NCBI GenBank assembly: GCA_964187785.1
Contig: OZ076409.1
Location: 66,218,001-66,282,000 of the forward strand
DNA from: Amphiscolops sp. MND2022
Taxonomy: Eukaryota
Direction: 5' to 3'
Length of the DNA stretch: 64,000 nucleotides
Part shown: positions 15,220 to 47,516 of the stretch, piece after piece
Position numbering within the stretch: position 1 is the stretch's first letter
Layout: each line of letters opens with the position of its first letter
The notes under the pieces: generated by a model
Seen by the model: the letters and a program-made list of their open reading frames with translations, nothing else
Told to the model about the DNA's origin: nothing
The model's database searches: none
Made by a program: the position numbers and the translations under genes

Positions 15220-15236
15220 ATATATTTAAATAAATA

Positions 15237-16534: not shown

Positions 16535-16582
16535 AAATAAAATCAGTATAAAATTTAAATCCTAATTTTTATTCCTATTTAA

Positions 16583-17789: not shown

Positions 17790-17931
17790 ATAAATATAAT
17801 TTAAATATAATAATACAGCTTTGCTGATATGATAAATAAATTTATAAAAGAATATATTTATTTTTTATAAAATGATAATAATTATAAAACAATAATATAT
17901 TAAATAACTTTATAAAATAATATATTAATTT

Positions 17932-21671: not shown

Positions 21672-21844
21672 TTATTAAAGAAAAAATAGTTTAATTGAAA
21701 ATTTTTCAATAATAATTTTTCAAAAAATTGGTGAAAAAATAATTTAATTTTGTGGGTTCAATAAAATTTTCTATTTGTAAAATGTGTGTCTTGTTATTGT
21801 CTATAACTTTGTCCCCTGTATCATTGCGTTGCGATAAACCAGTT

Positions 21845-26212: not shown

Positions 26213-28214
26213 CATGGCAACATCCATGGCAACATAGAGGTTAGTGAATTTTTGCTTCATGACAAAGTTTTCCACTGGAAAAATTTGTGCATCGATTTTT
26301 ATTTTGTTAAATTTTCAGTTGTGAAAAATAACTAATTTTTAGATGGTTTGCATTGGTTATTTTTTAACAGTTAGTTGTGAAAAAAAACGTTGATTTTTTT
26401 TAAAAAATAATCAACATTTTTTTTAAAGAAAAATATTTGACTGGTCCGAATCGGGAATTCGTATACTACTCCAACGTGATTGTGCACCGTCTTCGTTTGG
26501 CCTGTATTTCCGCTTCGACGTGAGCAGCGAACTGTCGTGTTTTTATCGGTCGGTGCAAAAGATCGGTCGGTCGGTGGGTGGACTGTGGTATCAGCTAGTC
26601 GTGGTTTTCCACAGTACCTGGATTGCTCACTTAAGTCTCACCGCATTTGATCATGTACTTATCTAAAGTGGGTAAAATGATCGGATAGTGGATGCGCTTG
26701 TCGGATCGTGTGCGGGTTCGACAACCTACGTGCTGGCTGACAACGACGATGGAGGGGTCATCGAACAGCAATATTGCGAGGTAAATCAGTTTTTTGAAAA
26801 GAGGTGTGCTGGTTCCCGGGAAACTGACCCTGATGTAGACGATGTGATATCGCTGTAGTTGTGATTCGCTTTTTGCAGTAGGTGCCGACATTTACGTGGA
26901 GTGTTGGAGCTGATGTGTGGAATGTCCATTGTGCGTACCTTACAGTCAACTTTCCTGGATGATTCTTCTACAGCACTGGGTTCGGATGTCCTGATCTCGG
27001 CATTGAATTTCGTACCCAGTTGGTTTGCTGGTTCGTTCCTCGAACAAACTCCTCAGACACTTCGTTCCTCTTTATCTGATGAAGTAAGAGTAAAGCAATG
27101 GGACCTGCTGCTCAAGTGAGGATATTGTCTGCCGAAGAAGTGGGGTTGTCAGGTCCTCCAGTAGACGAGTATCGATCAAAAGTCCTTGCGCAATTGGATT
27201 TACTAGAGGCCGTGGCAACTAGTCAGACTCGCTCTGGGAGCCGTCACGTTGTCAGTCTTACGTTTGGTAGGCTTCCATGTGGATCCCAAGTAGAAGAGCC
27301 CCGGAAACAGAGTGAAGTGACTTTACCTCAGCAACAAGGATGCTTATCTAGTGTCCTCCCTCTGAAAACGTCGCCCCCAAGTCTTTGTGTCTAGCGGACT
27401 TCGGTTACAAGGAAGATATCGTTTCGTACCTCCACGTCAAAGCGTTGGTCCGATCGATTTGCTCTGGAATCGTCTGGTGAGTCGGAGTGAGTGGCGGTTC
27501 AAGAAAGAGGAAAATCATTTGGACTTTCGAAAAACTATGTTGCAGAAATTCTTGTTTGCATTTCGAAATTGTATTTGCATTTTTGACTCATTTTGGTTTT
27601 ATTTTACTTGTGGAATTCGTTTGCTGACTTTTAGTTTGTAATACATATGCTTTGCATTTTATTTCATGCTTTTACTAAAGGTGTCTATGTTGGTTTTCAT
27701 GTGTAAATTTGATTAGTTGAGTTACATGTGTTGTATGTACTGGGAGGCTAGTCCTGTTCATAGATACTTGGATGCATTAGTATGGTTGATTTTGTTTAGT
27801 TTTGTTATAAGGAAGAACATTACGTGCCCACTTGAATTACATTTACACGGAGGAGCGAAGTTTATGCTTCATCTGAACAGGGGCCGGGTAGTAACTCTGA
27901 TCTGTAGTTAGCTGATTTTTAATTGCTGACTTGACCTTCGTTTTCTCTAAACTATCTTAGTTGAATGACGCGGTGTTTAGTAGTTTCCTTTATTGTTGTC
28001 ATGCTTAGTCACGTTATTTCACTCTACAGACAGAGCGTTTCCGTCCAATTCGAAACTAAAATTGCTAGTAGAGAGTCAGATGTATTGCATACTTGATTAG
28101 TTTCGTTATTTTCATGTTCTTTTGCATTTAGTTCTGCATGTCTTCATGTTTTCGTACATGTCGACTATGTAACGTCCGGCATGGCAAAATTTCGATGAAA
28201 AATTCGAAAATATG

Positions 28215-30178
28215 TGTCGAAACCCACCGTGTGGGCCGGCTTTGAAGGACCTTTCGAGGTTGACTGTCGGTTTTCGGTGTCTGTCTTACTTATGACAGCC
28301 ATCATTAAGTCCTTCAGTTGACTGAGCTCATTCTGTAGTTCGTTTATCTTTCTCTCATAACTCTCTTTTATTTCAGATAACTGAGACGAGATATCAGAAA
28401 CCTCGTTGCTATCAGAGTCATTGGCAGAAGACTGTGCCATGTCTGGATCCGTTTGAACAGGTGTTTCTAATGAGGAACTAATAACTCTTCCGCTTCTGAG
28501 TTCGGTGCCTAGATCTGGGTTCATAGAGGTGGGAGAAAAGGAATTATGAGTGAAGACTGGATTCTGGATGATTTTTCGATGTATTTTACTATTTTATGCT
28601 GTTATTCGAACTCAAATTCACTATTTCTGAACTTGAGATGTAAATGCGATGAGTTTTACAGTAAGACAAGGATACTAGTAAAGAATGAGAAATAGTTAAC
28701 GAGGATTAAGTAGAGTTCATCCAAATTTCATCGAACAGATATCAATCAAGAAATTACTCAGAGTTGTGGAGGTAGCGTTATTTACGATGAATAAGAGATA
28801 TGTTTTCTAGTTCAAATCTGTCGTAATTCGTCCAACTGGACGGTAGCTAATCGCAATTTCGGTCTGAGTAATCTCTAATGGCGGTCCAAAATTCAGCAGT
28901 TCACGTGTCTTTTCAGGCTGGTAAGACGCTAAATCTCTTACCAGCCGACTCTTATTGGCTGTTGCCAGTTGGTGCTAATTGGTAAGTCACGTGACCGGTG
29001 TTGTGAACTGCCGCAAGTTGGCCAAACCACATGGTACATCTACATATATTCATTATGACTAATCATCACTTTACAATGTCGCAATTGCCTGCACACAGCG
29101 CCATGGTTTCTATAGCAACTCAAATCATTCAATAATGTACTAATTTCAAGTCAAAACAGAGTAAACTGCATCACAGGATGAGAAAACGATGTTTTTCCAA
29201 CTAATTCTAGCACTAAAATCAATACTTCAAAACCAAAGATGGAAACGCGATGAATTCGTCAGAATATTTGCTGATTTTCAAGTCTAGTTTAGCTCTGGAT
29301 GAAAATGCGATGAATGGTGGTCTTTTAGCTCGAAAATCAACACGATATGAACTGACGATGATAAAAGGATGAACTCGTCTTCAAAATGAATGATTTCCAG
29401 CACAATTTAAATCAACGATGGTAAAAGGATGAACTCTCCTCGAAAATAACTAATTTCCAGCACTAGTGAAATTGGCGATGAATTCAGGATGAATTCAGCC
29501 AATAAAACAGGTGAAACAGCTAATTCTGCAGTAAAGACAAATATACGATGACTTTAGGATGAAGACATTCAGTAAAACAGCAAAATCTAATGAATCGAAT
29601 TCCAACGATGAGTTTAGGATGAACTCAACTGAAAACTCGACTAATTCTAGCGCAAGTTGAACTAGCGATGAATTTATGATGAATTAGTGATGAGTTAATC
29701 TAATAAAACAGATATCCAGCACTTCACTCTTTTTAGGATGAATTAAGGATGTACTTTCTCATTCCTTGTAGTTACTAGTCAGGACGATGAAATATAGATG
29801 CGTTATGCTCTTTTTAAGAAATGAGAAGCACATTGAAGGTTAATAATCACAAAACGACGATGAGTATAGGATGGTTTTCATGCATTTTAAAGTCCCGTGT
29901 GATCCGCTGATGGATCACTAGATGAAATCAAATAAATGTCCCAAATTTTGTTCACCCGCAATCTTGGCGATGTGATTGCGATGAACCTTGATAATATAGC
30001 ACTGTGATTTCACTAATAGATCAAGTTGTAGGATCACTAAGTCCGCTGATGGATTAGTGATGAACTTTTCTGAAAATCGTCACGACTACAAGTCCTGAGG
30101 CGAGGGAGCTAGTAGAAGTTACATATTCCATTATTTCTACATCTCTCGGTCCAGTCTGACCGGAAAACTTCTCTCCCT
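28215..30178 (-). mobile_element. Truncated tandem Gypsy unit (5' UTR plus gag start) sharing the LTR at 30179-30450
   Basis: Near-identical to 45280-47243 and directly abuts the LTR exactly as the 5' UTR abuts the LTR at 47244. Confidence 0.93.
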
Positions 30179-30450
30179 TGTCGTGACAAACCAATATTGA
30201 ATAAGATAGCACGTTAAAAGCCATTTGGCAAGATCATTTGTGCGGACACCGGAACTAGAGCGCTCAGTATTAAATAAATATATATAGCTCAAACTCAGGG
30301 GGGTAGGGATTAAGGTACAAGTAACGTAGGGTTGCTCACAACCATGGCTCTTATTATATGACATCATATTGCCCATATCTAAGTACATAAGACATAATAT
30401 TTACATTACAAATATTTAGTAGATTATATTTCCATCATGCTGGCATGACA
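30179..30450 (-). repeat. 3' LTR (also serves as 5' LTR of the truncated tandem unit)
   Basis: TGTCATGCCAGC...TTTGTCACGACA on the minus strand, preceded by a short PPT-like GGGGAG; 2 substitutions and 1 indel versus 47244-47516. Confidence 0.95.
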
Positions 30451-31074
30451 CTCCCCGGGGCGGGATTTGGACTGAGAGTGCAGGGGCCAAATGTGCAGAG
30501 GATGGTTGTCTCGGCGTTGGCTTCGACTGGTCCTTCGTTTGGTTAGGGAGAAAATGGCCTTCGTTAGTTCTGAATTGGCATGTCCTTCGTTTGTTCTGTC
30601 CTGTGAGAGCTTCTCTGAGAAGAGGACTTTCGGTAATCGTCTTTTCTGGCATCATCCTGGGTGATTTCGGTTAAAATTTTTCGACGCGGCAACTCTAATT
30701 CTTGGTCCATCGAATGTCCGCTGATCTGCATTTTATTGGTTGTCATGCTTTTGACGGGAGTTTCGGCTGGTTATTTTCGGTAAAAGCTGATTTCTCGAAG
30801 AAAAGTTTCCCTCCAAAACGCTTACGCTGAGTAAACAATTCGATTAGCTTCACTGACAAATTGGCGAAGAGTCGGGGATGAATGAACGATGAATTATTTG
30901 CTCAGCGAGACATCAATGCTGTTTTAGCGGAATGGCTGGCGCCGTTGCTTTGTTTACTCGCGATGGAAAGGAGATGAATCGTTGTCATAGCAACTGTCAA
31001 AAGTTACTTCCGCTGCTCGACTTTGAGTGAAATGAGAAAGAGATGAATTCGTCGCCATAGCAACTGTTGCTCGA

Positions 31075-31140
31075 TCTGATTGGCTGAGACTGGATTTATA
31101 ACTGAAGGAAATTACAACCGGTTGTAAACAGCATTCTCAT
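31075..31140 (+). promoter_or_regulatory. Candidate promoter of the antisense gene
   Basis: Reverse CCAAT box CTGATTGGCT (31076-31085), TATA-like TTTATAA (~31095-31101), Inr-like GCATTC ~30 nt downstream. Confidence 0.45.
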
Positions 31141-31587
31141 CCATAAATCATCCTCCATTCAAGTCGGTTTGAAAATCGCCACGATTTCCTTTGCGCGTTT
31201 CCGCTCAACTCCGTCGGTATTGATCTGAGACTGGCAGCTGTCAACAAATCAAATACTTGAAGTTTTTTGTCAAGTGTTAGGAGGGGACGATCCGTTTTCA
31301 GAGAAAGCTTGAGTTGGCTGTACTCGGAAGAAAAGTGATGTCAGTATTTGAAATCGGAGAGTTTTTCATCGATTTTTCATCTTCTGAATTCAAGTATTTG
31401 ATTAACATGGCATTCAAGCTGCGTCGCGCTCTTTGAAATCTTCTATTGAATTTGTTCTTCCGTAATCATGGTTGATCAGGCCATTTAATTACTGATCAAA
31501 TTCTCTGTTCCTGAATTCTTCGATTTCTTTCCTTCTTTCACCTTCTTCCATTCTTTTCAGATTGTTTGTTTTGCAATTCACTTCGAG

Positions 31588-34500
31588 ATGTCAGACATTC
31601 ATTCAGTCTACTCCTTACCAGATACCGAGGTCACAGAAAGTAAGTGCACTAGTTTTCTTTTCTTCACAAACGGGTTAGGGACAAACTAGGTACTGAAAAT
31701 ACGTCTTGCCTTAGCTGACTCAGTCCATTCTGTTGGCATCGTATCTGAGTTGACGACGCTTCAAACTGTGCCGCCGCAAGAGACTCCAATAGCCCAACCA
31801 GCTATCGCTGAGCCTCAGGTTGACCCTGGTAGTCAGCCTAATCAAGAGTTCAATGTCCCGTATCTTCCGCAGTGTAAGTATTATCCTTCCGGCCTTCAGT
31901 TCAGTCTTCGAATCCCTCATATCTCATCCTTACTTCGTCCAGTAGTTGACTCCTTTCGTACGGTGTTTCAGACCACTACCCTTGGTATGCCTCTCTCGGC
32001 AGTATCACCTTCGGGTGGTATGACCGCCACATGCGGGACATGCTGCGGGACAGTATCCAGCAATTCAGTGAGTTTGTCGATTTCTCTTTCATTCTCCTAG
32101 GCGATCGTCCGAACACTCCGATGTGATTCCGATGTAAACATCTCATCTGCATGTAGTGTCCTTTGTGGTCGATTACCCATGTAATTCATTTTCAAGATGA
32201 ATTTAGGATGTGTTATGAACATTCACCGTCCTTCATGACTGGCTCGCTGTAAATCTCATTCTTTGAAGATGAGTTTTGGATGAAATCTTCTCCAGTCTTT
32301 TTCTTCGCGCGGCGTACGCGCTCTTTCTTCTCTAATCGTCGTCGTCCAGTAACTGTTTCTTCTTTCAGGCCCCACACCGATTCACGCGCCGAGGCCTCGG
32401 CCCATCACCTATTCCATTGGAATAGGGACTAGTGATCACCAGGCTGAGAACATTGATGCTAGTACTCAGGGAGGGCCTCCTCAACTTGACTTGTCCTCGT
32501 TCCTTCAGGACTTGTCATTCGGGAGTGTAAGTTCTCCTGTCAGGCAGGCACCAGTGTCTGTACTGTCGCCAGTGCTGAGGGGTTCTTTTGCCGCTAGTAG
32601 TCCTCCTCCTGCTCGCATCACTCTCGACGCTGCTGTGAATGCTGTTGTCGATTGCGTGGATGCAGTCATCGATGCCGTTGTCGATACCTCTGATCGCGCA
32701 GTCCAGGCCGTTGTGGAAGTCAGTGAGTCCTCCACCTTCCATGATCCTCCTGTTGAGGAACCTGTCATCGTTGCCTTTTCTTCTGTTCCTGCCCTTTCAG
32801 TCAGCGGCACTGATACAGTTGGTGACGCTTCCGTGAATACCGCCGGCGGTGCTGAGACCCTACTTGAAGTCCCTGGTGACTTCTCGTCCGACAGCCTTCT
32901 GCCTGCTGAACCTGACCGAGAATCTGCCTCTCCCAGTGCTGCTCTCATGTCGACCGTGGCTTCTCCCATGGGACCCAGTCTACTGGATAGTGATGACGAA
33001 CCAATCGCGTCCCGTCTGCCAGGTTAACTAAACAGCTTTAAACTGGTGAAGTATCTGATCAGTAGATTTTTCATTCATTTCCTTCTTCGCTTTTGCTTTC
33101 ACTAGCATTTTTCACGTTTTTCTTCTTTTCTATCCATTTTTCATCGTTCTTCTGTTTTCACTATATGGTTTTCTGCAGTTTTCCATTTTTCCATCACATT
33201 CTCATCGTCAAAAGTCGTTGAACATTAGTTTTCGCTCTCTAGTCCTTTTTAGAAATTTCATCTCTTTTACATCTTTAAAATTTTCTCTTTTCGGTTTTCG
33301 CTATTTGTCGGTGTTTTCTTTTCAGTTTTCATCTCTTTTTCATCGTTAAGTTGTTTTCGCTCTAAAATATCTCAATTTTTGGTTCAAAGTCGTTCTATTT
33401 ATCTCTTTTCCATCGTTCAAGTTTTTCATTCTTTAAGGTTTCCATTTTTCATTCTGGTGGTGTGCAAAAATCATCTCTTTTTCATCTTTTCGTTTTCTTC
33501 GTTTTTCGCTTATATTTCCTGATGAAAATATTATTTTACATCATTTTTTCATCACTCCGGGTGACTTTTTGGGAGTTTGCGGTGGTTTTTCATTTTTCAG
33601 TTTTTAAAGATTATTTTAAGATGATCTTGGAATTTTGTGGGAACGTGGTCGTTTTTAGTGGATGTGCTATGTGTTGGCATGTGATTATTTCTGTTTGTAG
33701 GGCGAAAAGTGATCAAGTCATGGTGGTTTTCTCATGAATACTGTGGGCTTGCACTGGGCTATGCACGAAGTCATCAATCGCGGCTATCATTCGTTCGATG
33801 TTTACTGTGCAAGCGTGATATCAATGTTGGCAGCCGTGGTATCACTACTTTCATGGAGCATTGTCGTGGGCTCCGTCACCATCGTTTGGACTGCCTGATT
33901 CGTTTGTTTCGGGATTTACCGTTGCGGCGACGCGACGGGTCATTGATGAGTAATGAAGAGAGTGTGGAGTGTAGGAGCAGCCTGGGCGGTGCAATGGTGC
34001 CGTTCATTGAGACGTGCCCCTCCTTTAGTATACTGGAGGTGTTTGAGTTGGAAGCAGCTGGACGACCTGTGTGGGGGGACGAGGAGGAAGAGGATCTATT
34101 GTGTGAAAAGACCGTGCATCTGTTCGTGTGCCTGGTTATTGACGCAATCTATCGTGGGTGTCAGTTCGCCAGCGTAACGAGTTTGTGGGAGGTGATGGTT
34201 GCGTCAGAGCCGCAACATGCCTCTCTTTTCGGTGTTACTTGCGAAGTGAATGACGTGATGGTAATTCGTATTTCCTTTTGTTTTTTTGTTTCATGAATGT
34301 TCATGTAGATGGAAAAAAAATACATTTAGTGGGTGGTTTTCCATAGGTAGTTTTGAAGCTTGTGTGGGGGTGATTTTCAACTATTAATTGTGTCGGGTTA
34401 TTTTTAAGCGGATCGTGAATTAATGTATAGTAAAGTTGATGTTTGTTTTTAGAGTGTGGTTCTACTGAGTTTGTGGCCGTACGCGATGAAGAGGCTAATC

Positions 34501-36369
34501 ACTCTGTGGTCTAACTGTGGGTTCACTAGCTTTCATGTGGCTGTTGGGCAGGGGCGCGTGACTGGCACGGTCACAATGTGTTCTCTAGAAGGGATCAGTC
34601 AGTACTGTGTCTTCAGTTTTTGTCTGTCTGAGGATTGGGAAAAACGAGTTGTCACGTGGATGATTAACATGTGGTGTTGTTTGCTTGGAGAACCTGTTCC
34701 ACTTGGACTGTGTTGCGATGCGTTGCCACAGCTGGGTGGACTGTTCCAAGCCGCCACTGGCGTTGGGTCACTGGAGTTGAAGACGCTGTCATTGTGTGAA
34801 ATCAGTCGGACAATTGTGGACGTGGGAGGGCGGGCGCTCGGCGGGACTGATATTCACGTGGTGCTGAATCATCTGCAGAAGAGACTGAAAGGATATGTCA
34901 GGGATCCTCTGTTGTTGAGTTGCCCTCATCTGTTGCAGGTCGGTGTATTCTTCCGCTTTTATTTGAGTGTTACTATGAGTTGTACTCTTTGTCTGTTTCT
35001 GTTGTTTGTATATTGGTAGTAGTTTGTATTGTAATATTTTGTTTTATCTATGTGGAGCTTGTTATGTTTTGTTTAGGCTATTTTATCCGGGGAAGTCTAC
35101 GTGTGGACTCTTGCTGATGTGTGCGATGAATTACGTGCCAATTGGGCAGAAGTGCTGTGTCTAGTTCGATTTGCTTCGGGAGACGGGCCAGTAGATGCGT
35201 TGGATCTTACCTTGAGGGTGGAGTTTGGGATCCCAATCAGGCTCCGGGCACTTAGTATGGTCTATCGTGCTTGTTAGTATGTTGTATACTTACCGGGTGG
35301 GAAGTTTCTGTAGTTGGCCGTTTTTACGTATTCGAGTGTTTAATCAATTCGCATTTTTCGGGAAGGGAACGGGGGGGGGGGTTTAGTCCGATTATTTACT
35401 GTGTATAGAATTGTTGTGTTTTTCATTTCAGTAGTGACGTCGTACGAAAAGAGTTTCGGGTCTTCATCATTGCGGAGTTGCTACTGGGCGATCGAGAGTG
35501 CATTGTTTGTGAAACGCCTGCTGACTCTACTGGTTGACGAAGAGAGCCTGCCCACTGATCTGGATATCCGTGGGTGGTTGTTTGTGGATGTAGACAGTTA
35601 TGTTGTGTCAGCGACTAAGTTACAAGCCCTTATCGCGAGTTTCAGCTCGGATGAGAATTTGACGGAAGATGTGGCTGTGTATGAAGAGGATGTGTCCCGA
35701 GTGCCTAATTTCTTATTGTCTATCGTCAAGAACGTATTATTGCTACCAGGGATTCGTGACGATCTTGCTTTCGTGCGAAGTGTCTTTAGTTCACCCAGAC
35801 TGGTTTGTGTGGCGGAAACTGATCTTGTGGCGGAAATTCGCAATTTTACTGGTTTACTTGTGGAAATGGGGCGGATCAGTTTAGTCGAACAGGATCGAAT
35901 GGAGCTCGGATTTCTGGAATTCATAAGGGCTTTTCGGTGCGAGCCTAGGCCAGCTGGGGCGACTGCCGAGTATTCAGCCGTTGATCTGTTGCGTTGCTGT
36001 TCCAGTCGCGGGTCACAGAGTCTGTTACAACTTGTCTTTTGCCTGGGAGGGGTGGTGCAGAGCACTTGCAATACCGTATGCGAAGGGATCGGGCACCTGC
36101 CGAGCGATGTCATGAGCTGTGTATGTGCAGTAATCTCTAGTTATTTGTCTGCTAATCATGTGCGAAGTTACGGTAGTGTCAGTGGGCCACTGATGGAAGA
36201 AGTGATGGAGTCGCACAGAAGGCTCGTCGATCTATCAGAGATTACAGAGGGCATGTTGTGGGACGACGTCGGTATCGTGGCTGGGGAAGATTATCGTCTC
36301 CAGTTATATGCTAGTCTTGGTTACGATGTGACCGGGGAGCGGGCTGCCAGTCCCGAGATTGGAAACTGA
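31588..36369 (+). CDS. Spliced antisense cargo gene, 8 exons, ~1046 aa: disordered N-terminus, CxxC-H-H Zn finger, degenerate hAT-transposase-like body
   Basis: Predicted exons 31588-31639, 31715-31873, 31972-32067, 32369-33022, 33701-34260, 34453-34938, 35077-35272 and 35432-36369 total 3141 nt with no in-frame stop. All introns are GT..AG with matching phases (1,1,1,1,0,0,1). AATAAA at 36470-36475. Confidence 0.82.
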
Positions 36370-38431
36370 CTTATTAACTGTTTATGTTGTTCATTGTTTT
36401 GCTATATAATTTGTTGTATTTACATATTAGTGTAGTTATTCATATGTTGGGAGACCCATGAAAAAGGTCAATAAATGGAAAGCACAGTAATGACCATAGT
36501 GAGAATGATACAAATCCAGATGCTACGGCGGAAAGATCGGTAGTAGTGTGTTTACAACATTAGTTATTTTGGTGCCCAACAGCTGTTTTTCTTTTGAGTT
36601 GTTAGAGATAGTTACAGAGGATATTAAGTACGTGTAAATCAACAAGTTTGTCCAACAGTTCACTTGAAGCATTGTCTTCGGTATTTTTGTATCATAGATC
36701 ATCGGTCGCGCGTCGCTTTTATGGTGTTCATCGTTACTACATCTCGTGGTAGTGTAAGTAACTCGTCAGCGTTTGATCTTTGATTTTTCATCTCATTTTC
36801 ATCACGTTTTCCTCGGTCGACCAAGCGACGTCGTGAAAACTGTTTTTGTCATCGTTTTTACATCTTTCGGTGCGTCAGAAACATTGCGTGTTGTTACATG
36901 TGGTTTTTCTACGTATTTCATCATTTTTTCATCTTGCGTTTGATTTGAGCACTTTCGTGCGTTATTTGCTATAGTTCATCGTTTTTGCATCGCAAGTTTG
37001 TCTTGTTCAGTTTCTGCTCACTTTGCTGTATAGTTCATCTTCTTTTCATCGTGCGTTTGAAATGTACGGACTTTTGCGTGTTTTCGATGTTATTTGGCTA
37101 TAACGTAAGCGGGGGTTGCATTTTTCATGTCCGGAGGAAATTTTTATTAATATTGCGGTATTTCGGATTGTTTTCTTCATGTATTTTAGCGTTATACGGT
37201 TATAACCATTTGTCGTGTTTTTGAATTTGCATGAACTTTATGGTATATGTGTTTTAATCATCGTCGTCATGTTTCTAATTTGTCAACTTCGGAACAGCAT
37301 TGCATGTATTTTTAGTTCGAATTCTGGTGACCGCCGCTTGCGTGGCAGTCGAAAATAAGTTCACTCAGCAGTGGTACTGATAGCCTGTAGGCGTGCAAGG
37401 TACTAGTGGCTTCAGTCCAGCGCTGGGTGAGTGGAGCTGCTCCGCTCCTTTCAGGTAAATGGAATCTCGTAGTTTCGGGCTATATATAGTCTATATGTCA
37501 TTTTTTCCGGTCGGTTGTTTGCCATTATTCGTCGAAATGGGTTTGTCCATTTGACGGTCAGTCCGATCAATCAATGTGATTGACATCTACGGTTATGCAT
37601 GTGTCCAGTTTTAGACTATCTGTTTCTTGTATTTGCATGTATGGATTGTTACATGATGTGCTCTTTTAAATGGGTTGCCCCATTATTGACATGTCGTTAT
37701 ATGTTCGGTGTTAGTTTCATGTTTTTTGATTTTATTTTCGTTCATTTGGACAGGGCTTTGTCGTGACAAAGCCCCTACAAAACTAACTGAGAATCCACTA
37801 GCCGCTGGATAACCAACGCAGCAAGCTTCATCCGAATATGGTTGTGAGCTCCCCGCCTCAACTAACCAGCACTCTTTTCAGAGAAATGCCAGCCAGCACG
37901 AAGGAATGGTTTTAGCTTTTCGATAGGGGTGTTTTGTATGTTGTGATCTGATGTTTACTGGGGGGTGCTCACTCCTTTATTAGTTTTGTAGGTGTTTCGT
38001 CAGTTCTTATATTTTGCATGTAAGTTAGTAGACTTGATGTATTTTCGATCGTTTGTTTCATTTTTATTCGTCTAGGTTCGGATGGTTTTGGTGTGAATTG
38101 CATATATTATCTCATTCATTTTTGAACGGTACATGTATATTTCCGTGTGTTGCTCATTTGTATTGCATGTAGTTTGGAATTGTTAATTGCTTTCGTGACG
38201 TCATTGACTTGGCAGGTCTTTGAACTTTACATGTATTGATCATTTCATTTTTGTGTCGCATAATTTCGTTGCATGATTCGAAATAAGGTCGGTTGTTTTT
38301 TATCGTTTCGTGGAGTTACATGTTGTTTGCGAATTAGCTGATTTATTGTGATGTTATGTTGATGGTGTTTCCCATCACAAAGAGGTGTTGGTAAGTCATT
38401 TAATATTTTCGAATTTCCATTTAGACTAAAT

Positions 38432-38964
38432 TCATCGTTTTGACATCCTCCAGCGAAGCTAGAGTATTGTGTCAGGTTAACGATAAATTCGGTCGTGATT
38501 TGATGGTAGTGTCCATCACAAGTTCATCTCGTTAATTGATTTCATGTAATTTTTGAAGAATTGGATCGAGTTCATCGCTATTTCATCCTCTGGCCGAGCT
38601 AGAGTCTTGTAATAGCATGAACGTGGGTGCCCTTGCATTCTGATGGTATTTTCCATCTCAAATGCATCGCTAGTAAATATTGCATGTTGATTGGTCGATT
38701 TTTTGGCTGAGTTCATCACTTTTTCATCTCTCGTGTGTCTGAGCTAAATTTTCGTGTGGTTTCATCCTTTTTTCATCTCAAATTTTTGTGTGTTGTGTTT
38801 TCTGGTTTTTGATCGTTTTTCATCCGTTTTACATCTCGTTTTGTTTGTATGCGGTTTTCATGTGATTTTTAGTAACTTTTCATCCATTTTACATCTTCAT
38901 GTACTTTTTAAGTTAAAATTGCATGTAATTCGTTCGTTTTGTGATTTGTTCATCCGTAATACAT
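38432..38964 (-). repeat. Array of CATC-N7-CATC motifs at ~60-bp spacing downstream of pol
   Basis: Copies at about 38432, 38514, 38573, 38654, 38714, 38763, 38821, 38881 and 38950. Confidence 0.85.
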
Positions 38965-39023
38965 CTCAGATTTAAAATGAGACTTTCTTGGTTAAATGGT
39001 TACGTCTATTTTGTTGGTCTTTC

Positions 39024-42000
39024 TCAGTGCGTTTCTAGCTGAAGTAATCTCATGAATGAGGAAGTCTCTGGATACGTTTTCGGTGTAGGGTTCTCACGTA
39101 ACCTGTACCTACTTTGATTTGATCTAGACGGTCTAGAACTCATCCTTTCTTCATCATCATTTTGCGTGTTTGTCTGTTGTGACTGATTTTCGTGTTGTTC
39201 GTCTCTCAGAGGTACTCTTATCCTACTGTCATCGCGGGGAGGCGGTAGAATAATTTCTTCTCGCGTTCCAAATCTAACTGTAGGTGGTCTAAAGTTGTTG
39301 TGATCAGTTTCTACTTGCTGATAGTCTATTCTCGTGGTTATTTCTGGTGGAATTACTTGTGGAGTGTGTTGTTCTTGTACCCGAGGAATTGTTTCTTCTG
39401 AAGGCTCTTCTTCAACCAAGTCTTGATCTAGATTGTCATTTTCAGTCTGATCTATCTCGTCGGTCGTCGGAATATTCGAGTCGAAAATGTCCGTGTCTTC
39501 AACCCTTTCGGTGTCTGGGTAGAGATGTTTGGACACGTTGATGTCGTCAATCGGAAATTCCGGTTTGAACAATCTCAGTCGCATGCGGTGTACGCACTGA
39601 GTTTGGTGTGTGCCTACTTTGCGGATGATGTAGTTGCTATCGGATAGCACTTTAATCACCTTGTACGGTCCTTTCCAATGGAAAGTTTTAAACTCTTCTT
39701 TGCTTCTCTGAGAGTCGTACTTAGGGTCTAGTAGGAACACAAATTCATTCACCTTCAGTGGCTGTGCTCGTGCTTTTCTATCATAGTACGTTTTGTACTT
39801 GTGATAGGCGGAAATGATGTTATGTAGATTGTCTCTGAAGATAAAATTCATTTTGTCTAGAATTTCGTTCACGTCCTTGCACTTTGTTTCAGCCGGTTTG
39901 TTTGCGTTTCGGAATTGCAGATCTAGTGAGTTGTATGGTGTTCTTCCGTGGAAAATTTCAGTTGGTGAACATTTCAGTGTATCATGATACGTTGTGTTAT
40001 GGGCCATGATTGCTATGTCGACATAGCGGTCCCATTGTGGTCTGTCTGCGTTTACACTAATCTTAAGGATCTTTTTCAGTTTCGCGTGCGTTCTCTCCAC
40101 CATGCCTATTGTCTGCGCGTGCTTTATCGTGGCATGGGAGATGTGAATATCAGCCGCTTTCGCGATTTCAGACAGAAGTTCAGCCGTGAACGCCGTGCCT
40201 TTGTCGGTCAGAATGTGTTTGGGCACATACGCGTGTTTTGTGAAGATCGACAGTAGTCCTCTGACTACGGAATGTGTGTCAGGTCTCTTCAGCGGAACGG
40301 CGAACAGGTAGCGCGAAAAAACGTCAACAGCCGTCAGGATGTGTGTAAAACCGTTCGATGCCGGGAGTGGACCAACGATGTCTATTTCCAGCAGGTCTTC
40401 TGGTCCGTCGCACGGGTCGTAGATTTTTTGTAACGGTGGACGTAGTTGCGTTTCTTTTACAGTTTTAGACTTCATGCAGTTTTCACATCCGTCAAGGACT
40501 TTTTGAACTTTACAGGCTAAGTTAGGAGAGTAATATCTTTTACGAAGTTCATACAACATTTTCTTTAAACCAGGGTGTCCTTGTACCGGGCTGTTATGTA
40601 GAGTCCTAATTATTTTCAAAATACAGTCTTCAGGAACGACTAACTGCTTATGAGACTCTAGTCCCGTGTGATCAAAAAACTGTCTGTACAAGACACCGTT
40701 TACAACTTGTAGGCGTTTTCGATTTTTGTACAACTTTTGAAAAAACTGGTCTTGCATGTTAACTGGGTGTTGCAAAATTTCAGTACCTTCTAAAAATCTA
40801 ATCATTTTTTGGATAACCCAGTTATTTTTCTGGACCTGAATTAGATCGATCCCCTCGGCGGGGCTAACCTGACTCATTACCGGGTGTGATAATGATACTT
40901 TACGGATGAATTGCGAGAGTTGAATCGGCTCGTCCACGTCTGTGAGGCGGTACGTCAGATGGTTGTCAGTCGCGAAGTCATCTGAGGCCGCAGTTCTCTC
41001 ACAGTTGGTGAACTTCATCCCTTTCCCATCGTCATGAGCCACGTCAGTGCCAGTTGCCAATTTCATCTCTTTGACATCCTTCTGGCGTTTGCATCTGAGT
41101 GGTTCGCTCGCGGGGAAGTAATCAGGCTCGTCTTCCTCCTGTTTTGGTGTACGGGAGGCGATGTCGATCTCGATCCTGTGAATTGGAATAGTATCAGTCA
41201 ATTTTAAATGTACACGGTCTTCAGGTCTAATCTCAAGGCGAGATAAGTAATCCGCTGCGGGATTTTCAACTCCTGGAACATGTGCTAATAGAAAATTGAA
41301 CTGAAGGGTTTGCTCGCAAAAATTCCAAAGTGAAGGCGGGATATGCTTCGCCTGGAAAAATCTAGTCAAGGCCTTATTGTCAGTCATAACAATGATGGGT
41401 TTTTTCGCACCCCACAAAATGTGGCCAAAATCATCGAAGGCAAAGTGCATAGCTAGAAACTCTTTGGCATACATTGTTAGAGACATCTGGCCGCCCTGAA
41501 ATTTCTTAGAGCCAAATGCAACAGGGGCGTATGTATGTTTGACTGACGGGTCTGCATAATCCTCGATTAACAACACATAGCCTGCAGCGTGTTCGCTGGC
41601 GTCACACATGATTACCAGTTGTTTATCTGGTAATGGCAATTTCAGAGACACCTTTGTTGCTTTTAACAAACTTTCATTAATTTCAAAAATAGTATCTTTG
41701 TGTTGTTGGTTCAGCTTGAAAGGGACGTCTTTCTTGATGAGTTCCTGTAAACAACAAGTTTTATCAGCTAGACGGGGAATGTAAGACCTGTAAAAGTTCA
41801 CAAAACCAAGATAACGTTGCAACGCTTTCACTGAATTGGGGGGTTTCAACTTCGTTAAATAGTCTGTTACGCGTTTTTCAATGGGAGCAATACCAGTGCT
41901 AGAAATGGTTTTTCCCAAGTACTCAATTTGTTTTTGTCCAAATTCACATTTACTCATGCTAAGTTTAAGACCAGCTTTGTGCAATTGTTGAAAAACAAGT

Positions 42001-44087
42001 TCAAGGTTGGTAATCAATTCTTCGGGTGAGTGTGCTGCAATTCCAATATCGTCAACGTATTGGGCACAGCGGTCCGCTTTGACCAAGGGGTCCAAATACT
42101 CACGGATTACTCCTGTAAATGCTGACAAAGAACGATTAAGACCTTGTGCTAGACGTAAAAATGCAAAAGTTCTAGACCCAAAATTAAACGATAACAGTTG
42201 GACAGATTGCTCATCGGCCATTGGAATGCAATGGTAGGCCTGGGAACAATCAAGTTTGCAGAAGTACTTTTTCCCGGCCATGTGTTGGGCAGCGTCAGCA
42301 ATTGTTGTTACGGGATGATTGTGCTCACCGTAATCGTTTTTGATCAAGTGGTTTATTCTTCTCAAGTCGACTAAAATTCTCAATTTACCATTAGGTTTAC
42401 GTTGAGCAAATATCGGGGAAGAATATTTGCTGTGAGGCAAAGTAGTTATAATCCCGTACTCTTGCATTAGGGCTAACTCCACGAGCAAATCGTCCTTCAA
42501 ATTTGTCGGAGTCGGGAGACTTTGTGAATAAACAGGTTCTTCGTGTTGAGGTGTTAACTTAACTTTAAAATCAGTGTTCATGCCAATATCAAAACGGTGT
42601 CTAGCAAAAATGGAGTTGTACTTTACCAGCAACTCCTCTACCTGTAACCGTTGAGACGGAGTAAGAAGCGAGTCGTCCCAGTTGAAGTTCTTCAGGAAGT
42701 TCATCCGTTGTTCATCGGATTGGGACGGGTCAAGCTTCTCGAGCTCTCGCAGTGCCAGAATCTCATCATAAATCCGTCGCTCAATTGTGTTGAGTTTGTC
42801 TGGCTCACTGCACGTCTCGGGAGTTGGGTACCACTTGGTTGACTTCATTTCAGGGTTCACGAACAGTTGGTTGATCACTGTTTCGGCTTCATCTGGATAC
42901 TTGGTGATCAAGTTCAAGTGTTCCACTGGCATGGGCGTGATGTTTGCCGCCTGGTGTGGTGTCGGGATGCGAAAGTGTGCCAGAGTGGTGTTGGCTTCAA
43001 GTGTGTACGTGTGGTTGTTTGGGTTGGTGACCTGGATTGTCGTCTTGCCCTCGTCTAGGTCAACCAAAGCTGGAGAAACAAGCAAACACGTCTTTCGCAT
43101 GAAACCAGGTGAGCCCTCAACTGTACCAGTTGTAAGTGAGATGTCCGCGTCACTGTGGACCTGTATCATCACTTGATGGAGAGGAGGGATCACTGTTCTA
43201 GTGCTGGAACACAAATCAATTAAACCGGTTTTGAATCTGTTGTTCTTTTGCTGTCTAACTTGCATGGACATCATGTGATTAGGGAAGTGGACAAGGTGGT
43301 TTTTGATGTCTAAGTTGACTGAGTACTTTTCAAAAAAGGACATTCCAATTAAAATTGTTCCCATTGTTGGAAGGATTAGGAACGTTTCTTCGAATACTTT
43401 TCCAGCAACGTAAAATCTAAGTAAGACTTGCTTACGCACTGGGACTAAGTTCCCGTTTGCTATCTGAATTTTGAAATTCGGAGGGGGGAATTCTTGAAGG
43501 ATGGCTTCTGGATGAGCCGTTGTTATTTTTCGCAGTTCGGCTTCAGACATTGCACTTTGTATTGCGCCTGTGTCTAAAAGTGCGCTGTTTTCGTATTTGT
43601 CAAACTGAAGAGGGACGTACAGCATTTTATCTTTCTTGTTTAAATGTAAAGTGGGACTGAGAACGTGAATTTCTGTTTTAATTGCATGTTTTTTAGTTTT
43701 CGAAACGTTAATACTATTCTGTTTTGCATGTTTTTTAATACTAAGCCGTTTGTCGATTGTTGAGTGTGAAGTCGAGTCGTCGTCTAGATGGTGGGTTTCC
43801 ATCTCTTTGGCATCTTCCACCTGCCTCATGGTGTTTGGTTGCCAGTTCATCGTTTGTTCATCGTTGATTTCAGCGAGTGGAGAAAAGCGGCTGCCGTTGA
43901 GTTGACGTGCATTTCTCATCGCTTTTTCATCGTTGGAAAGTCTTCGCTGATAGACGTCGTCAGCTTTTGGTCGTTTGTCCAATGAAGGCTGCCATTTCTT
44001 CATTGGACGGTCGTGTGTAGTCGGTTGAGTCGAAAGTCGTTGGTCGCGCGTTGTGTTTCTAGCGGGTGGAAATCGTGGCGGAATCAA
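39024..44087 (-). CDS. pol: Gypsy Pol polyprotein (PR-RT-RNase H-IN), expressed by -1 frameshift from gag
   Basis: LLDTGA, RILVDLRRIN, KLDCSQAY, YVDD, MCDASE, H-x6-H..CENC, IDIVGP/TDKGTAF/MVERTH, WKGPY; 1687 open codons. Confidence 0.97.
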   Translation of the reverse strand: MIPPRFPPARNTTRDQRLSTQPTTHDRPMKKWQPSLDKRPKADDVYQRRLSNDEKAMRNARQLNGSRFSPLAEINDEQTMNWQPNTMRQVEDAKEMETHHLDDDSTSHSTIDKRLSIKKHAKQNSINVSKTKKHAIKTEIHVLSPTLHLNKKDKMLYVPLQFDKYENSALLDTGAIQSAMSEAELRKITTAHPEAILQEFPPPNFKIQIANGNLVPVRKQVLLRFYVAGKVFEETFLILPTMGTILIGMSFFEKYSVNLDIKNHLVHFPNHMMSMQVRQQKNNRFKTGLIDLCSSTRTVIPPLHQVMIQVHSDADISLTTGTVEGSPGFMRKTCLLVSPALVDLDEGKTTIQVTNPNNHTYTLEANTTLAHFRIPTPHQAANITPMPVEHLNLITKYPDEAETVINQLFVNPEMKSTKWYPTPETCSEPDKLNTIERRIYDEILALRELEKLDPSQSDEQRMNFLKNFNWDDSLLTPSQRLQVEELLVKYNSIFARHRFDIGMNTDFKVKLTPQHEEPVYSQSLPTPTNLKDDLLVELALMQEYGIITTLPHSKYSSPIFAQRKPNGKLRILVDLRRINHLIKNDYGEHNHPVTTIADAAQHMAGKKYFCKLDCSQAYHCIPMADEQSVQLLSFNFGSRTFAFLRLAQGLNRSLSAFTGVIREYLDPLVKADRCAQYVDDIGIAAHSPEELITNLELVFQQLHKAGLKLSMSKCEFGQKQIEYLGKTISSTGIAPIEKRVTDYLTKLKPPNSVKALQRYLGFVNFYRSYIPRLADKTCCLQELIKKDVPFKLNQQHKDTIFEINESLLKATKVSLKLPLPDKQLVIMCDASEHAAGYVLLIEDYADPSVKHTYAPVAFGSKKFQGGQMSLTMYAKEFLAMHFAFDDFGHILWGAKKPIIVMTDNKALTRFFQAKHIPPSLWNFCEQTLQFNFLLAHVPGVENPAADYLSRLEIRPEDRVHLKLTDTIPIHRIEIDIASRTPKQEEDEPDYFPASEPLRCKRQKDVKEMKLATGTDVAHDDGKGMKFTNCERTAASDDFATDNHLTYRLTDVDEPIQLSQFIRKVSLSHPVMSQVSPAEGIDLIQVQKNNWVIQKMIRFLEGTEILQHPVNMQDQFFQKLYKNRKRLQVVNGVLYRQFFDHTGLESHKQLVVPEDCILKIIRTLHNSPVQGHPGLKKMLYELRKRYYSPNLACKVQKVLDGCENCMKSKTVKETQLRPPLQKIYDPCDGPEDLLEIDIVGPLPASNGFTHILTAVDVFSRYLFAVPLKRPDTHSVVRGLLSIFTKHAYVPKHILTDKGTAFTAELLSEIAKAADIHISHATIKHAQTIGMVERTHAKLKKILKISVNADRPQWDRYVDIAIMAHNTTYHDTLKCSPTEIFHGRTPYNSLDLQFRNANKPAETKCKDVNEILDKMNFIFRDNLHNIISAYHKYKTYYDRKARAQPLKVNEFVFLLDPKYDSQRSKEEFKTFHWKGPYKVIKVLSDSNYIIRKVGTHQTQCVHRMRLRLFKPEFPIDDINVSKHLYPDTERVEDTDIFDSNIPTTDEIDQTENDNLDQDLVEEEPSEETIPRVQEQHTPQVIPPEITTRIDYQQVETDHNNFRPPTVRFGTREEIILPPPRDDSRIRVPLRDEQHENQSQQTNTQNDDEERMSSRPSRSNQSRYRLRENPTPKTYPETSSFMRLLQLETH

Positions 44088-45589
44088 AAACCCTGATTTA
44101 TGTCTTCATCAGAGTAGGTTTCTTGGTCTTCTTCTTCGGTGACTGCTTGCATAGGATTCATCGGCTTTTGTTGTCGTTTTAAGTCTTGTCTTCTAGTTCT
44201 GTTGTCATCTTGTGAATTCGTTGCGTATGGAATCTTTCCATATGCAGAACTGCTTTCTTTAGGTACACGTCGTCTGCAATCCCTTGCTGAGTGGCCTGTG
44301 TAACCGCAAATCTGGCAAACCAATTTTGGATTGTATTTCGGCTTATCTGGATCGGCTGCTTTCTTCATTGGGATTGCATCCTCCTTCTTTATGCCGTTCG
44401 CTTCGTCTCGTTGTCGGGCGCGACATTCCGTTTTGCGGTGTCCTGTCTTTCCGCAGTAGAAACATTGTCCTTCAAACCGTTTTCGTTCTGTCGGTTGTGT
44501 GGTCGTCGTTGTTGTAGTAGGCTTCGTCGTTGTAATCGTAGGTGGTGCTGAGGAGGTGACCGCGTTGAATGGTTGGATTGCCGTAGGTGGCGCGACGTAC
44601 TGCTGGTACTGGTATTTTCGCATTAGGTAGGTTTTGATTTCCTCTGGGGAGCTCTCTTCTTTGTTTGCCATGGTGAGCTCTTGTTGAATCTCGACTGGCA
44701 GTTTTCCAAACAGGAACATTTTGATTATACTGTCGGCGTCATTGCCGAAGGCTTGTTTGGCAGTCTTCTTGAGATTTTTGAGGAAATCGCCGAATGTTTC
44801 TGTTGTGGGATCATAGCGTGCTTGATCCCATTTGTAACGGGCCACTTCCTTTAGATCCTCTTTTGCAAATTCTTTTCTGAAGAGGTCGAGTACGTCCTTT
44901 AGTGTTGTCATTGGCGTTATCTGGATGGATTGCCAGTATTCTATTGCGTCATCTCTCAAAAGGCTTTGAAAGAAGTGTAGTTTGTTCTCCTCGGTGATTT
45001 TGTTGGCAAGCGGGCTAAGGTGGTTGAGGAGAAGGTGCTCAAATTCGACGAATTTGTCTTTTTGGCCTCTGAAATTTGGCACGTGTGTCTGCAGAAGCTT
45101 CGTGTTGGTGGTTGTGTTTTTGATCCGTTGGGGGATCGTCTCGATTGCATTGAGTAGTCGTTCCTCATTGCTTCTGGGGGTTGATTCTCCTTCGTCTGAA
45201 TCGTCTTCTTGGTAACTTCTGAAGTTGGTGAAGCTGGTTGTCGGGCGGTTTGAGCGGGTTTCTGTAGCTCCTGTCACCATGTCGAGCCCCACCGTGTGGG
45301 CCGGCTTTGAAGGACCTTTCGAGGTTGACTGTCGGTTTTCGGTGTCTGTCTTACTTATGACAGCCATCATTAAGTCCTTCAGTTGACTGAACTCATTCTG
45401 TAGTTCGTTTATCTTTCTCTCATAACTCTCTTTTATTTCAGATAACTGAGACGAGATATCAGAAACCTCGTTGCTATCAGAGTCATTGGCAGAAAACTGT
45501 GCCATGTCTGGATCCGTTTGAACAGGTGTTTCTAAAGAGGAACTAATAACTCTTCCGCTTCTGAGTTCGGTGCCTAGATCTGGGTTCAT
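44084..45589 (-). CDS. gag: Gypsy Gag, 501 aa
   Basis: N-terminal coiled coil, capsid-like core, two CCHC knuckles CFYCGKTGHRKTEC and CQICGYTGHSARDC. Confidence 0.95.
   Translation of the reverse strand: MNPDLGTELRSGRVISSSLETPVQTDPDMAQFSANDSDSNEVSDISSQLSEIKESYERKINELQNEFSQLKDLMMAVISKTDTENRQSTSKGPSKPAHTVGLDMVTGATETRSNRPTTSFTNFRSYQEDDSDEGESTPRSNEERLLNAIETIPQRIKNTTTNTKLLQTHVPNFRGQKDKFVEFEHLLLNHLSPLANKITEENKLHFFQSLLRDDAIEYWQSIQITPMTTLKDVLDLFRKEFAKEDLKEVARYKWDQARYDPTTETFGDFLKNLKKTAKQAFGNDADSIIKMFLFGKLPVEIQQELTMANKEESSPEEIKTYLMRKYQYQQYVAPPTAIQPFNAVTSSAPPTITTTKPTTTTTTTQPTERKRFEGQCFYCGKTGHRKTECRARQRDEANGIKKEDAIPMKKAADPDKPKYNPKLVCQICGYTGHSARDCRRRVPKESSSAYGKIPYATNSQDDNRTRRQDLKRQQKPMNPMQAVTEEEDQETYSDEDINQGF
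44087..44093 (-). promoter_or_regulatory. -1 ribosomal frameshift slippery site G GGU UUU
   Basis: gag ends CAG GGT TTT TGA; the -1 frame opens directly into pol (TTG ATT CCG...). Confidence 0.8.
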
Positions 45590-46241
45590 AGAGGTGGGAG
45601 AAAAGGAATTATGAGTGAAGACTGGATTCTGGATGATTTTTCGATGTATTTTACTATTTTATGCTGTTATTCGAACTCAAATTCACTATTTCTGAACTTG
45701 AGATGTAAATGCGATGAGTTTTATAGTAAGACAAGGATACTAGTAAAGAATGAGAAATAGTTAACGAGGATTAGGTAGAGTTCATCCAAATTTCATCGAA
45801 CAGATATCAATCAAGAAATTACTCAGAGTTGTGGAGGTAGCGTTATTTACGATGAATAAGAGATATGTTTTCTAGTTCAAATCTGTCGTAATTCGTCCAA
45901 CTGGACAGTAGCTAATCGCAATTTCGGTCTGAGTAATCTCTAATGGCGGTCCAAAATTCAGCAGTTCACGTGTCTTTTCAGGCTGGTAAGACGCTAAATC
46001 TCTTACCAGCCGACTCTTATTGGCTGTTGCCAGTTGGTGCTAATTGGTAAGTCACGTGACCGGTGTTGTGAACTGCCGCAAGTTGGCCAAACCACATGGT
46101 ACATCTACATATATTCATTATGACTAATCATCACTTTACAATGTCGCAATTGCCTGCACACAGCGCCATGGTTTCTATAGCAACTCAAATCATTCAATAA
46201 TGTACTAATTTCAAGTCAAAACAGAGTAAACTGCATCACAG

Positions 46242-47127
46242 GATGAGAAAACGATGTTTTTCCAACTAATTCTAGCACTAAAATCAATACTTCAAAACCA
46301 AAGATGGAAACGCGATGAATTCGTCAGAATATTTGCTGATTTTCAAGTCTAGTTTAGCTCTGGATGAAAATGCGATGAATGGTGGTCTTTTAGCTCGAAA
46401 ATCAACACGATATGAACTGACGATGATAAAAGGATGAACTCGTCTTCAAAATGAATGATTTCCAGCACAATTTAAATCAACGATGGTAAAAGGATGAACT
46501 CTCCTCGAAAATAACTAATTTCCAGCACTAGTGAAATTGGCGATGAATTCAGGATGAATTCAGCCAATAAAACAGGTGAAACAGCTAATTCTGCAGTAAA
46601 GACAAATATACGATGACTTTAGGATGAAGACATTCAGTAAAACAGCAAAATCTAATGAATCGAATTCCAACGATGAGTTTAGGATGAACTCAACTGAAAA
46701 CTCGACTAATTCTAGCGCAAGTTGAACTAGCGATGAATTTATGATGAATTAGTGATGAGTTAATCTAATAAAACAGATATCCAGCACTTCACTCTTTTTA
46801 GGATGAATTAAGGATGTACTTTCTCATTCCTTGTAGTTACTAGTCAGGACGATGAAATATAGATGCGTTATGCTCTTTTTAAGAAATGAGAAGCACATTG
46901 AAGGTTAATAATCACAAAACGACGATGAGTATAGGATGGTTTTCATGCATTTTAAAGTCCCGTGAGATCCGCTGATGGATCACTAGATGAAATCAAATAA
47001 ATGTCCCAAATTTTGTTCACCCGCAATCTTGGCGATGTGATTGCGATGAACCTTGATAATATAGCACTGTGATTTCACTAATAGATCAAGTTGTAGGATC
47101 ACTAAGTCCGCTGATGGATTAGTGATG
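46242..47127 (+). repeat. Array of ~15 GATG-N7-GATG motifs with ~60-bp period in the 5' UTR (copied at 25228-26113 and 29177-30062)
   Basis: Copies at about 46242, 46303, 46363, 46422, 46482, 46542, 46612, 46672, 46732, 46802, 46851, 46924, 47034 and 47113. Confidence 0.9.
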
Positions 47128-47243
47128 AACTTTTCTGAAAATCGTCACGACTACAAGTCCTGAGGCGAGGGAGCTAGTAGAAGTTACATATTCCATTATT
47201 TCTACATCTCTCGGTCCAGTCTGACCGGAAAACTTCTCTCCCT

Positions 47244-47516
47244 TGTCGTGACAAACCAATATTGAATAAGATAGCACGTTAAAAGCCATTTGGCAAGATC
47301 ATTTGTGCGGACACCGGAACTAGAGCGCTCAGTATTAAATAAATATATATAGCTCAAGCTCAGGGGGGGTAGGGATTAAGGTACAAGTAACGTAGGGTTG
47401 CTCACAACCATGGCTCTTATTATATGACATCATATTGCCCATATCTAAGTACATGAGACATAATATTTACATTACAAATATTTAGTAGATTATATTTCCA
47501 TCATGCTGGCATGACA
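47244..47516 (-). repeat. 5' LTR
   Basis: 273 bp, ~99% identical to 30179-30450; contains a TATATATA box. Confidence 0.95.

Follow-up and report, generated by a model that had tools for sequence, protein, structure and literature searches.

An intron-bearing antisense gene of probable transposase descent in a Ty3/Gypsy retrotransposon of Amphiscolops sp. MND2022

The 64-kb stretch of Amphiscolops sp. MND2022 DNA analysed here (contig OZ076409.1, positions 66,218,001 to 66,282,000; the window, numbered from its first letter) contains a Ty3/Gypsy long terminal repeat (LTR) retrotransposon on the minus strand at 28215-47516, which carries an antisense gene between pol and its 3' LTR. The gene is almost certainly a real, selected cargo gene of the retrotransposon: its exon-intron structure is conserved, purifying selection acts on it, it transposes together with gag-pol, and it is swapped as a cassette among near-identical gag-pol backbones. 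Comparison of lineages indicates that it is ancient and clade-wide in the carrier lineages. A DDE-transposase origin is likely, and we give a probability of about 0.48 to the reading that the protein would act, by analogy with plant activators, as a self-directed DNA-binding regulator (transcription or anti-silencing) of its own element. An earlier note on this DNA had proposed a hAT-derived gene; its antiquity, clade-wide presence and cassette swapping were absent from that note.

Structure, selection and transposition of the gene

The antisense gene comprises eight exons, 3141 nt encoding 1046 amino acids plus a stop codon and containing no internal stop, and seven GT-AG introns with phases 1,1,1,1,0,0,1. 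The LTRs of its carrier (2236 and 2237 bp) end in TG...CA and are 99.46% identical, with 12 differing columns, in line with the ~99% estimated earlier. A primer-binding-site (PBS)-like TGGTGACAGGAG and a polypurine-tract (PPT)-like GGGGAG are present, and gag, with CCHC knuckles, is followed by pol in the order protease (PR), reverse transcriptase (RT), ribonuclease H (RH) and integrase (IN). The gag frame begins inside the LTR (45280-45589), as does a like frame in two distant lineages (L090 and L091); the 3' LTR consequently carries the gag N-terminus a second time. The features are as follows.

28215..30450, minus strand: 3' LTR, 2236 bp, including the first ~100 codons of the gag frame (LTR comparison)
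29176..30063, plus strand: (C/G)GATGA(A) array with a period of about 60 bp, a candidate binding array (motif counts)
30451..30456, minus strand: PPT-like GGGGAG (motif)
30451..31587, plus strand: putative promoter and 5' untranslated region (UTR), including conserved blocks and, at 31559-31560, an acceptor-like site that is likewise conserved (allele comparison)
31588..31639, plus strand: exon 1, with ATG (allele comparison)
31715..31873, plus strand: exon 2 (allele comparison)
31972..32067, plus strand: exon 3, frame set by synonymous changes and conserved splice sites (allele comparison)
32369..33022, plus strand: exon 4; exons 1-4 encode residues 1-320, acidic, Ser/Pro-rich, no Lys (composition)
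33701..34260, plus strand: exon 5, BED-type C2H2 finger (about 33760-33879) and helical region (profile searches)
34453..34938, plus strand: exon 6, with an RNase H-like core predicted at about 34453-34785; Gly occupies the first-Asp site, Asp596 lies near the second, no CxxH (fold model)
35077..35272, plus strand: exon 7, helical; a permissive alignment places a Trp close to the hAT 'RW' position (profile alignment)
35432..36369, plus strand: exon 8 and stop, helical, unreliable model (fold model)
36470..36475, plus strand: AATAAA, not kept in divergent alleles (copy comparison)
36521..36545, no strand assigned: 6-bp hairpin, conserved CGGAAA loop, compensatory changes (allele comparison)
39024..44105, minus strand: pol (PR-RT-RH-IN), open frame of 1693 aa (open reading frame (ORF) and domain matches)
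44084..45589, minus strand: gag, CCHC knuckles, putative start at the first Met, within the 5' LTR (ORF and domain matches)
45268..45279, minus strand: PBS-like TGGTGACAGGAG, primer tRNA not assigned (motif)
45280..47516, minus strand: 5' LTR, 2237 bp, carrying the same motif array as the 3' LTR (LTR comparison)

Genome searches covered the 1.07-Gb assembly in 1929 contigs. Four divergent alleles (L031-L034, with exon 8 identities to the window of 63, 59, 60 and 85%) keep GT..AG at an unchanged codon position in 26 of 28 introns, the exceptions being a donor moved by two codons in L033 and one acceptor missing from the decayed copy L034. Exons 5-8 align without gaps in these alleles, and the introns vary in length and sequence. 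The exact eight-exon, 1046-aa model of the earlier note, with its seven phase-matched introns, was thereby confirmed; we infer the splicing of these introns from evolutionary evidence alone. An alternative start of exon 3 at 31946, which would make all introns multiples of three, was rejected because the conserved acceptor and the synonymous pattern give another frame and other copies have intron indels of 1-2 nt. Introns antisense to the genomic RNA are invisible to its splicing and outlast each reverse transcription, and this accounts for their retention in the gene.

Closer relatives were compared in 29 copies, the best-scoring others from 330 candidates of which 40 were scored, a choice that favours intact copies. 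Introns 3-7 (~1.45 kb) contained 49 distinct indels, a count raised by homopolymer runs, versus 3 in exons 4-8 (~2.8 kb), and 26 of the 29 copies were intact across the exons covered. Of the variants in exons 5-8, 53 were synonymous, 41 were nonsynonymous and 1 was a stop (omega 0.31), and among variants found in at least two copies the synonymous and nonsynonymous numbers were 37 and 13 (omega 0.14); both omegas are counted from distinct variants against the window copy, not from a tree, on a draft model in which exon 7 lacked six codons. The dN/dS below 1 that had been named as a check was therefore obtained. Nine of ten allele pairs had near-saturated synonymous sites (pS 0.68-0.74, pN 0.13-0.23), and the window-L034 pair gave dS 0.26 and dN 0.069.

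The AATAAA to which the earlier note drew attention is kept in 29/29 close copies and missing at that place in 5/5 divergent alleles, and it is therefore not established as a poly(A) signal. Just beyond the stop codon, 3 of the 6 pairs of the hairpin are changed on both sides among six alleles. A conserved polypyrimidine tract followed by CAG (31541-31561) lies 27 nt before the ATG with no clear donor; it is a candidate 5' UTR intron or trans-splice site. A bacterial promoter scan gave matches at chance level only, of no relevance here, and an Rfam search of 21500-48000 found no family.

The gene travels with gag-pol, as the earlier note had suggested checking. At least 49 of 91 integrase-region matches (98-100% identical) have the gene within 10 kb, 36 by exon 8 and 13 more by exon 5, and all of these pairings are antisense and on the 3' side, with none in the wrong orientation; the counts are lower bounds, all 127 exon 8 matches and 94 of 150 exon 5 matches having been used. 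Twelve further gene-pol pairings were read by eye from a later match list. Whole copies elsewhere in the genome are flanked by 5-bp target duplications (CTTAC, CTCAG and AAGAG) in 3 of 3 cases with both ends found (six examined); no target-site duplication was found at the ends of the window copy.

A simple nested hAT insertion, or chance ORFs, would be a trivial explanation, and the earlier note had given the former as a refuting case. None of 49 candidate 11-mer inverted-repeat pairs flanks the gene with an 8-bp duplication. The position of the gene is fixed in many copies and lineages, its introns are conserved and it is under purifying selection. Ordinary hATs do occur in this genome, and nothing was found in favour of this explanation, which we consider negligible.

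Searching this genome with a distant type of the gene (type B, P0054) gave at least 150 scored matches. At L035/L036 the type B gene is antisense to a Gypsy pol that is 67% (PR-RT-RH) and 56% (IN) identical to that of the window element, with gag at 41%, and its introns 4-7 are at homologous places with phases 1,0,0,1. An exon 6 match was found beside the type B integrase in 32/37 cases at ≥87% integrase identity, 0/37 at 78-83% and 5/14 at 69-70% (88 of 89 and 147 of 150 rows used). One unmatched element was fetched from each lower class, and in both of them exons 5-8 occupy this same position, with matching splice sites. Because lineages whose exons are each only 15-28% identical to the window gene share the antisense position and the phases of introns 4-7, the gene is ancient and clade-wide rather than a nested hAT. 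Outside this genome, exon 5 found 70 matches at 23-72% identity among 1.84 billion representatives, of which ten looked up were ENA proteins without an assigned name, and all 133 outside protein matches, these included, were short, exon-sized pieces except for the tandem-finger protein P0064. P0002 and P0052 are probably from other genomes, since their best matches here are only about 51% and 34% identical. A JGI metagenome scan found no relative.

Alleles of the gene are swapped among these backbones. Eight of the 36 exon 8-paired pol matches have alleles just 58-64% identical on backbones with 98-99% identical integrase. When L077 was compared with the window per 250 nt, spacer and pol were 94-100% identical and exon 8 was 57-61%, with a break near 36717; differing codons numbered 22/467 in the integrase region and 240/309 in exon 8. 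Type B gave 11 such cases, with integrase at 89-94% next to exon 6 at 52-64%. Template switching between co-packaged RNAs may be the mechanism by which the old alleles observed in these mosaics are exchanged.

Domain composition and origin of the protein

Residues 1-320 are acidic, rich in serine and proline and devoid of lysine; a transmembrane segment was looked for in the protein and none was found. The zinc finger recognized earlier appears, from weak matches, to be of BED type. The C2H2 finger of exon 5 matched Pfam zf-BED at 18.8 bits (E 0.0016), short of the 20.6-bit cut-off; 6 of 25 members gave a match, and ZBED2 was the sole match of the exon 5 profile in the PDB (E 0.36). By hhalign, the finger aligned on hAT BED fingers at E 0.013-0.04, above 30/30 controls. 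The exon 6 model, built from 34 sequences, had a confidence (pLDDT) of 62, with strands at 70-80, and showed the RNase H-like order b1-b2-b3-aA-b4-aB. In a second structural comparison ISCth4 ranked first (Z 6.4, 94 aligned residues, root-mean-square deviation 4.2), with model residues 1-107 on chain residues 153-258, a range that in the accessible text of PMC7780238 contains D175 and D241 and is followed by CxxH. Hermes reached Z 5.6-5.9 with 97 aligned residues over chain residues 152-264, tied with sugar kinases. We read the protein as RNase H-like by prediction and probably a dead transposase of hAT or MULE type.

Alignments with 5-12 hATs from this genome and IMG/VR bear on the active site. 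A wider profile, with lineages L090 and L091 added, gave a best local match of 53 columns in register over helix-b1-b2-b3 (E 0.18); its score was equalled by 1 of 40 controls, which supports the register marginally. In this alignment the Asp of L090 and L091 falls on the first catalytic Asp, where the window family has Gly, with Asp596 near the second and no CxxH; the third acidic residue of the DDE triad could not be located. The first Asp and CxxH appear, from these sequences, to have been lost in the window family, as the earlier note had suggested, although our alignments place the lost CxxH near exon 6 residues 105-112 and not at 'CPHL'. The clade chosen there for comparison (FPDS..CGRTK) gave 0 matches as a DNA pattern, and the alignments fit classical Ac/Hermes-type hATs.

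Several results weigh against transposase descent. A wide structure search placed glucokinase first (Z 5.7) and Hermes 44th (Z 4.8), with all Z below 8, and Foldseek, by which a structural match had been sought, returned none at E ≤ 0.001. No exon has a Pfam match above cut-off. The profiles of exons 6 and 8 mostly matched hATs no better than controls, and outside the finger no match was significant. The exon 8 model was unusable (pLDDT 45.8).

Further searches gave little more. PF05699 (hAT C-terminal dimerisation) and PF04195 had no Pfam match in the exons. The best local alignment of type-B exon 8 lands on the PF05699 region, with 27 of 40 controls scoring as high. Fold searches with exon 8 gave no match, full-length relatives of exon 8 (546-2000 aa) numbered 0 among 4753 candidates, and an atlas search of exon 8 had an uninformative best score of 0.82. 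The exon 6 profile found just one designed protein and one weak match in the PDB. A viral structure library gave none at E ≤ 0.001, a Pandoravirus hAT protein being 20th, and a search for DUF4371 gave 0 matches, its positive control likewise being without a match.

The earlier claim of hAT derivation stands as far as the predicted RNase H-like fold of exon 6; descent from hATs specifically is not established, as no profile match beyond the finger is significant, and we regard it as the favoured origin by a modest measure. The donor could instead have been a Mutator-type transposase or a ZBED-like host gene, rich in introns and already domesticated by then; alternatively, finger and RNase H-like domain could each have had an unrelated source. 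Such an origin would account for the seven introns, the top fold match of the second comparison is of IS256/Mutator type, and the hAT profile matches outside the finger are not significant. We nevertheless think it rather unlikely, given that the BED finger, helical region, core and C-terminal stretch are colinear with Ac-type hATs in permissive alignments, and that the outside protein matches are exon-sized pieces, apart from P0064, with no name borne by any that was looked up.

The LTR motif array and possible roles of the protein

The LTR is enriched in short motifs, with 13 copies of CGATGA versus 1.8 expected and 19 of GATGAA versus 3.0 expected. GATGA density is 12.5/kb in the LTR and 3.1-3.9/kb outside the element. 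The enrichment extends to the spacer (20 versus 4.8) and to the LTRs of four other alleles. A near-palindrome, AGGGCTTTGTCGTGACAAAGCCCT, lies in the spacer at 37762-37785, and its core TTGTCGTGACAA occurs again in the LTR (30177-30188), nearly invariant among alleles; it is a possible dimer or protein site.

We favour a regulatory role because a dead transposase would keep its DNA binding, plant activators bind motif clusters, and the LTR has such an array. The captured transposase would have lost its cutting chemistry and retained a DNA-binding scaffold; the protein would bind short motifs clustered in the non-coding DNA of its own element, here the (C/G)GATGA array of the LTR; and the acidic N-terminus or host chromatin partners would keep the element transcribed, by analogy with VANC and TnpA. 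Two observations fit this poorly. The array was not enriched in the sole type-B upstream region examined (L036), and alleles ~40% different have the same LTR motif, an observation at odds with tight coevolution of protein and motif as in VANC. We advance only tentatively the fuller proposal that a clade of animal LTR retrotransposons took in a complete hAT transposase gene, introns included, and domesticated it as a sequence-specific anti-silencing transcription factor of its own, with a cognate LTR array and diverged alleles swapped in an arms race with host silencing.

A protein of the same origin might have another job, holding the integration complex at selected sites on DNA or chromatin, or helping it enter the nucleus. 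A DNA-binding finger on a transposase scaffold would suit this role, and the gene is present in every lineage inspected. The type-B last exon (L035, L062-L068) ends in a basic tail whose otherwise variable sequence contains the conserved motif GRRTG(G)KP (GRRTG in 8/8), of which L091 has a variant and L090 and the window's type have none; we take this tail to resemble the histone H3 tail around K14. However, the tail had no match in the PDB, alleles swapped onto 98-99% identical integrase suggest no tight fit to the integrase, and the duplications CTTAC, CTCAG and AAGAG show no fixed target. Tethering is in our judgement an unlikely role.

Less probable still is an RNA role, as a Rev- or CERV-like export or stability factor for the 19-kb genomic RNA or as a counter to small-RNA silencing. 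RNase H-like folds are able to bind nucleic acids, and a covarying hairpin stands just past the stop codon, although it is small and has no assigned strand, and BED fingers bind double-stranded DNA. The precedent would be CERV of C. elegans Cer1 (PMC10309623, in the part available).

Genomic neighbourhood and comparison with known systems

The young element inserted just behind the last exon of an older, type-B-like gene of this family, whose exons 5, 7 and 8 persist in decayed form at 7869-8472, 22478-23442 and 26427-27391; this older gene is interrupted by an element at 8614-22522 with ~700-bp terminal inverted repeats (TIRs; 86%) and a fragmented DNA polymerase B-like gene (17932-21335), which we take, by its motifs, to be Polinton/Maverick-like. 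A 3941-bp tandem duplication (22272-26212 and 26221-30161, 99.95%) covers most of the LTR together with the old exon 8 and a portion of the Polinton TIR, and may be an assembly artefact. A model with a short LTR and a tandem partial element was dropped after the PBS and the true LTR ends were located. Two inverted copies (77-82%) of another Gypsy element, at 1-7875 and 52740-60972, carry a chuvirus-type fusion glycoprotein gene (PF24664, E 2.5e-24) and, in the same sense, a 449-aa ORF without assigned function. These Gypsy elements and the Polinton-like element point to an animal host.

Several LTR elements have accessory genes of other kinds. HTLV-1 HBZ is spliced. It is also antisense and nuclear (PMC11963269), CERV of C. 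elegans Cer1 is made from a spliced mRNA (PMC10309623), and the ORF3s of bdelloid LTR elements are captured enzymes with typically spliced messages (PMC5408684); as described in the parts of these papers at hand, none of these accessory genes combines antisense orientation, several introns and a transposase architecture. In a literature search of mainly open papers, in their main texts and with Repbase not covered, no multi-intron antisense transposase-like gene was reported in an LTR element, nor any antisense example that was BED/RNase H-like, clade-wide and allele-swapped; the word 'antisense' is absent from the accessible main text of PMC13547354.

Antisense extra genes at this position are already known in plant and fungal Gypsy elements. 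The antisense ORFs of plant Tat/Retand elements (aORF-3R), such as Grande gene23, RIRE2 and Retand TRP28 (PF04195), and fungal Boty brtn likewise lie between pol and the 3' LTR in most copies; the Grande ORF was shown to have its own promoter, and a nuclear DNA-binding role was proposed for aORF-3R (available text of PMC7264820, PMC11963269 and PMC8365987). Those of Retand carry a domain named Transposase_28. The literature treats them as ORFs ('intron' has 0 occurrences in the accessible text of PMC11963269) and calls their origin unknown, whereas the window gene, split by seven introns, encodes 1046 aa with a weakly matching BED-type finger and a predicted RNase H-like core, has no PF04195 match and apparently has an animal host. 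A review called both origin and function of antisense ORFs unknown and urged a search for antisense and spliced transcripts (PMC7264820). Here seven introns outlasted retrotransposition across lineages with pol 56-67% identical, and hundreds of genomic copies permit population-style tests. ORF-based annotation misses such genes, and more may therefore be hidden.

With hATs (Hermes, Ac) and ZBED proteins the gene product would share the weakly matching BED-type finger, the predicted RNase H-like core over Hermes 152-264 and, in permissive alignments, the colinear regions. It differs in its 320-aa acidic N-terminal extension, in the absence of the first Asp, CxxH and a PF05699 match, and in being retrotransposon-borne without TIRs or an 8-bp duplication. 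If a hAT gene does serve as the element's own anti-silencing factor, a transposon, and not its host, would have carried out a domestication across element classes.

Plant element-specific activators derived from transposases bind dense motif clusters (PMC5735166; bioRxiv 10.64898/2026.08.24.746577), and TnpA of Spm is itself transposase-derived (bioRxiv 10.64898/2026.08.24.746577), as far as the available portions of these sources state. Like VANC (VANDAL) and TnpA, the window element, in type A only, combines its gene with short motifs clustered in its non-coding DNA. VANC and TnpA belong to plant DNA transposons and their role is experimentally shown, whereas the carrier here is an LTR retrotransposon, the proteins have no sequence relation and the role is putative. 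The allele swapping offers natural experiments on specificity, and if the protein is a transposase-derived self-activator, the VANC/TnpA principle would reach retrotransposons, and probably animals.

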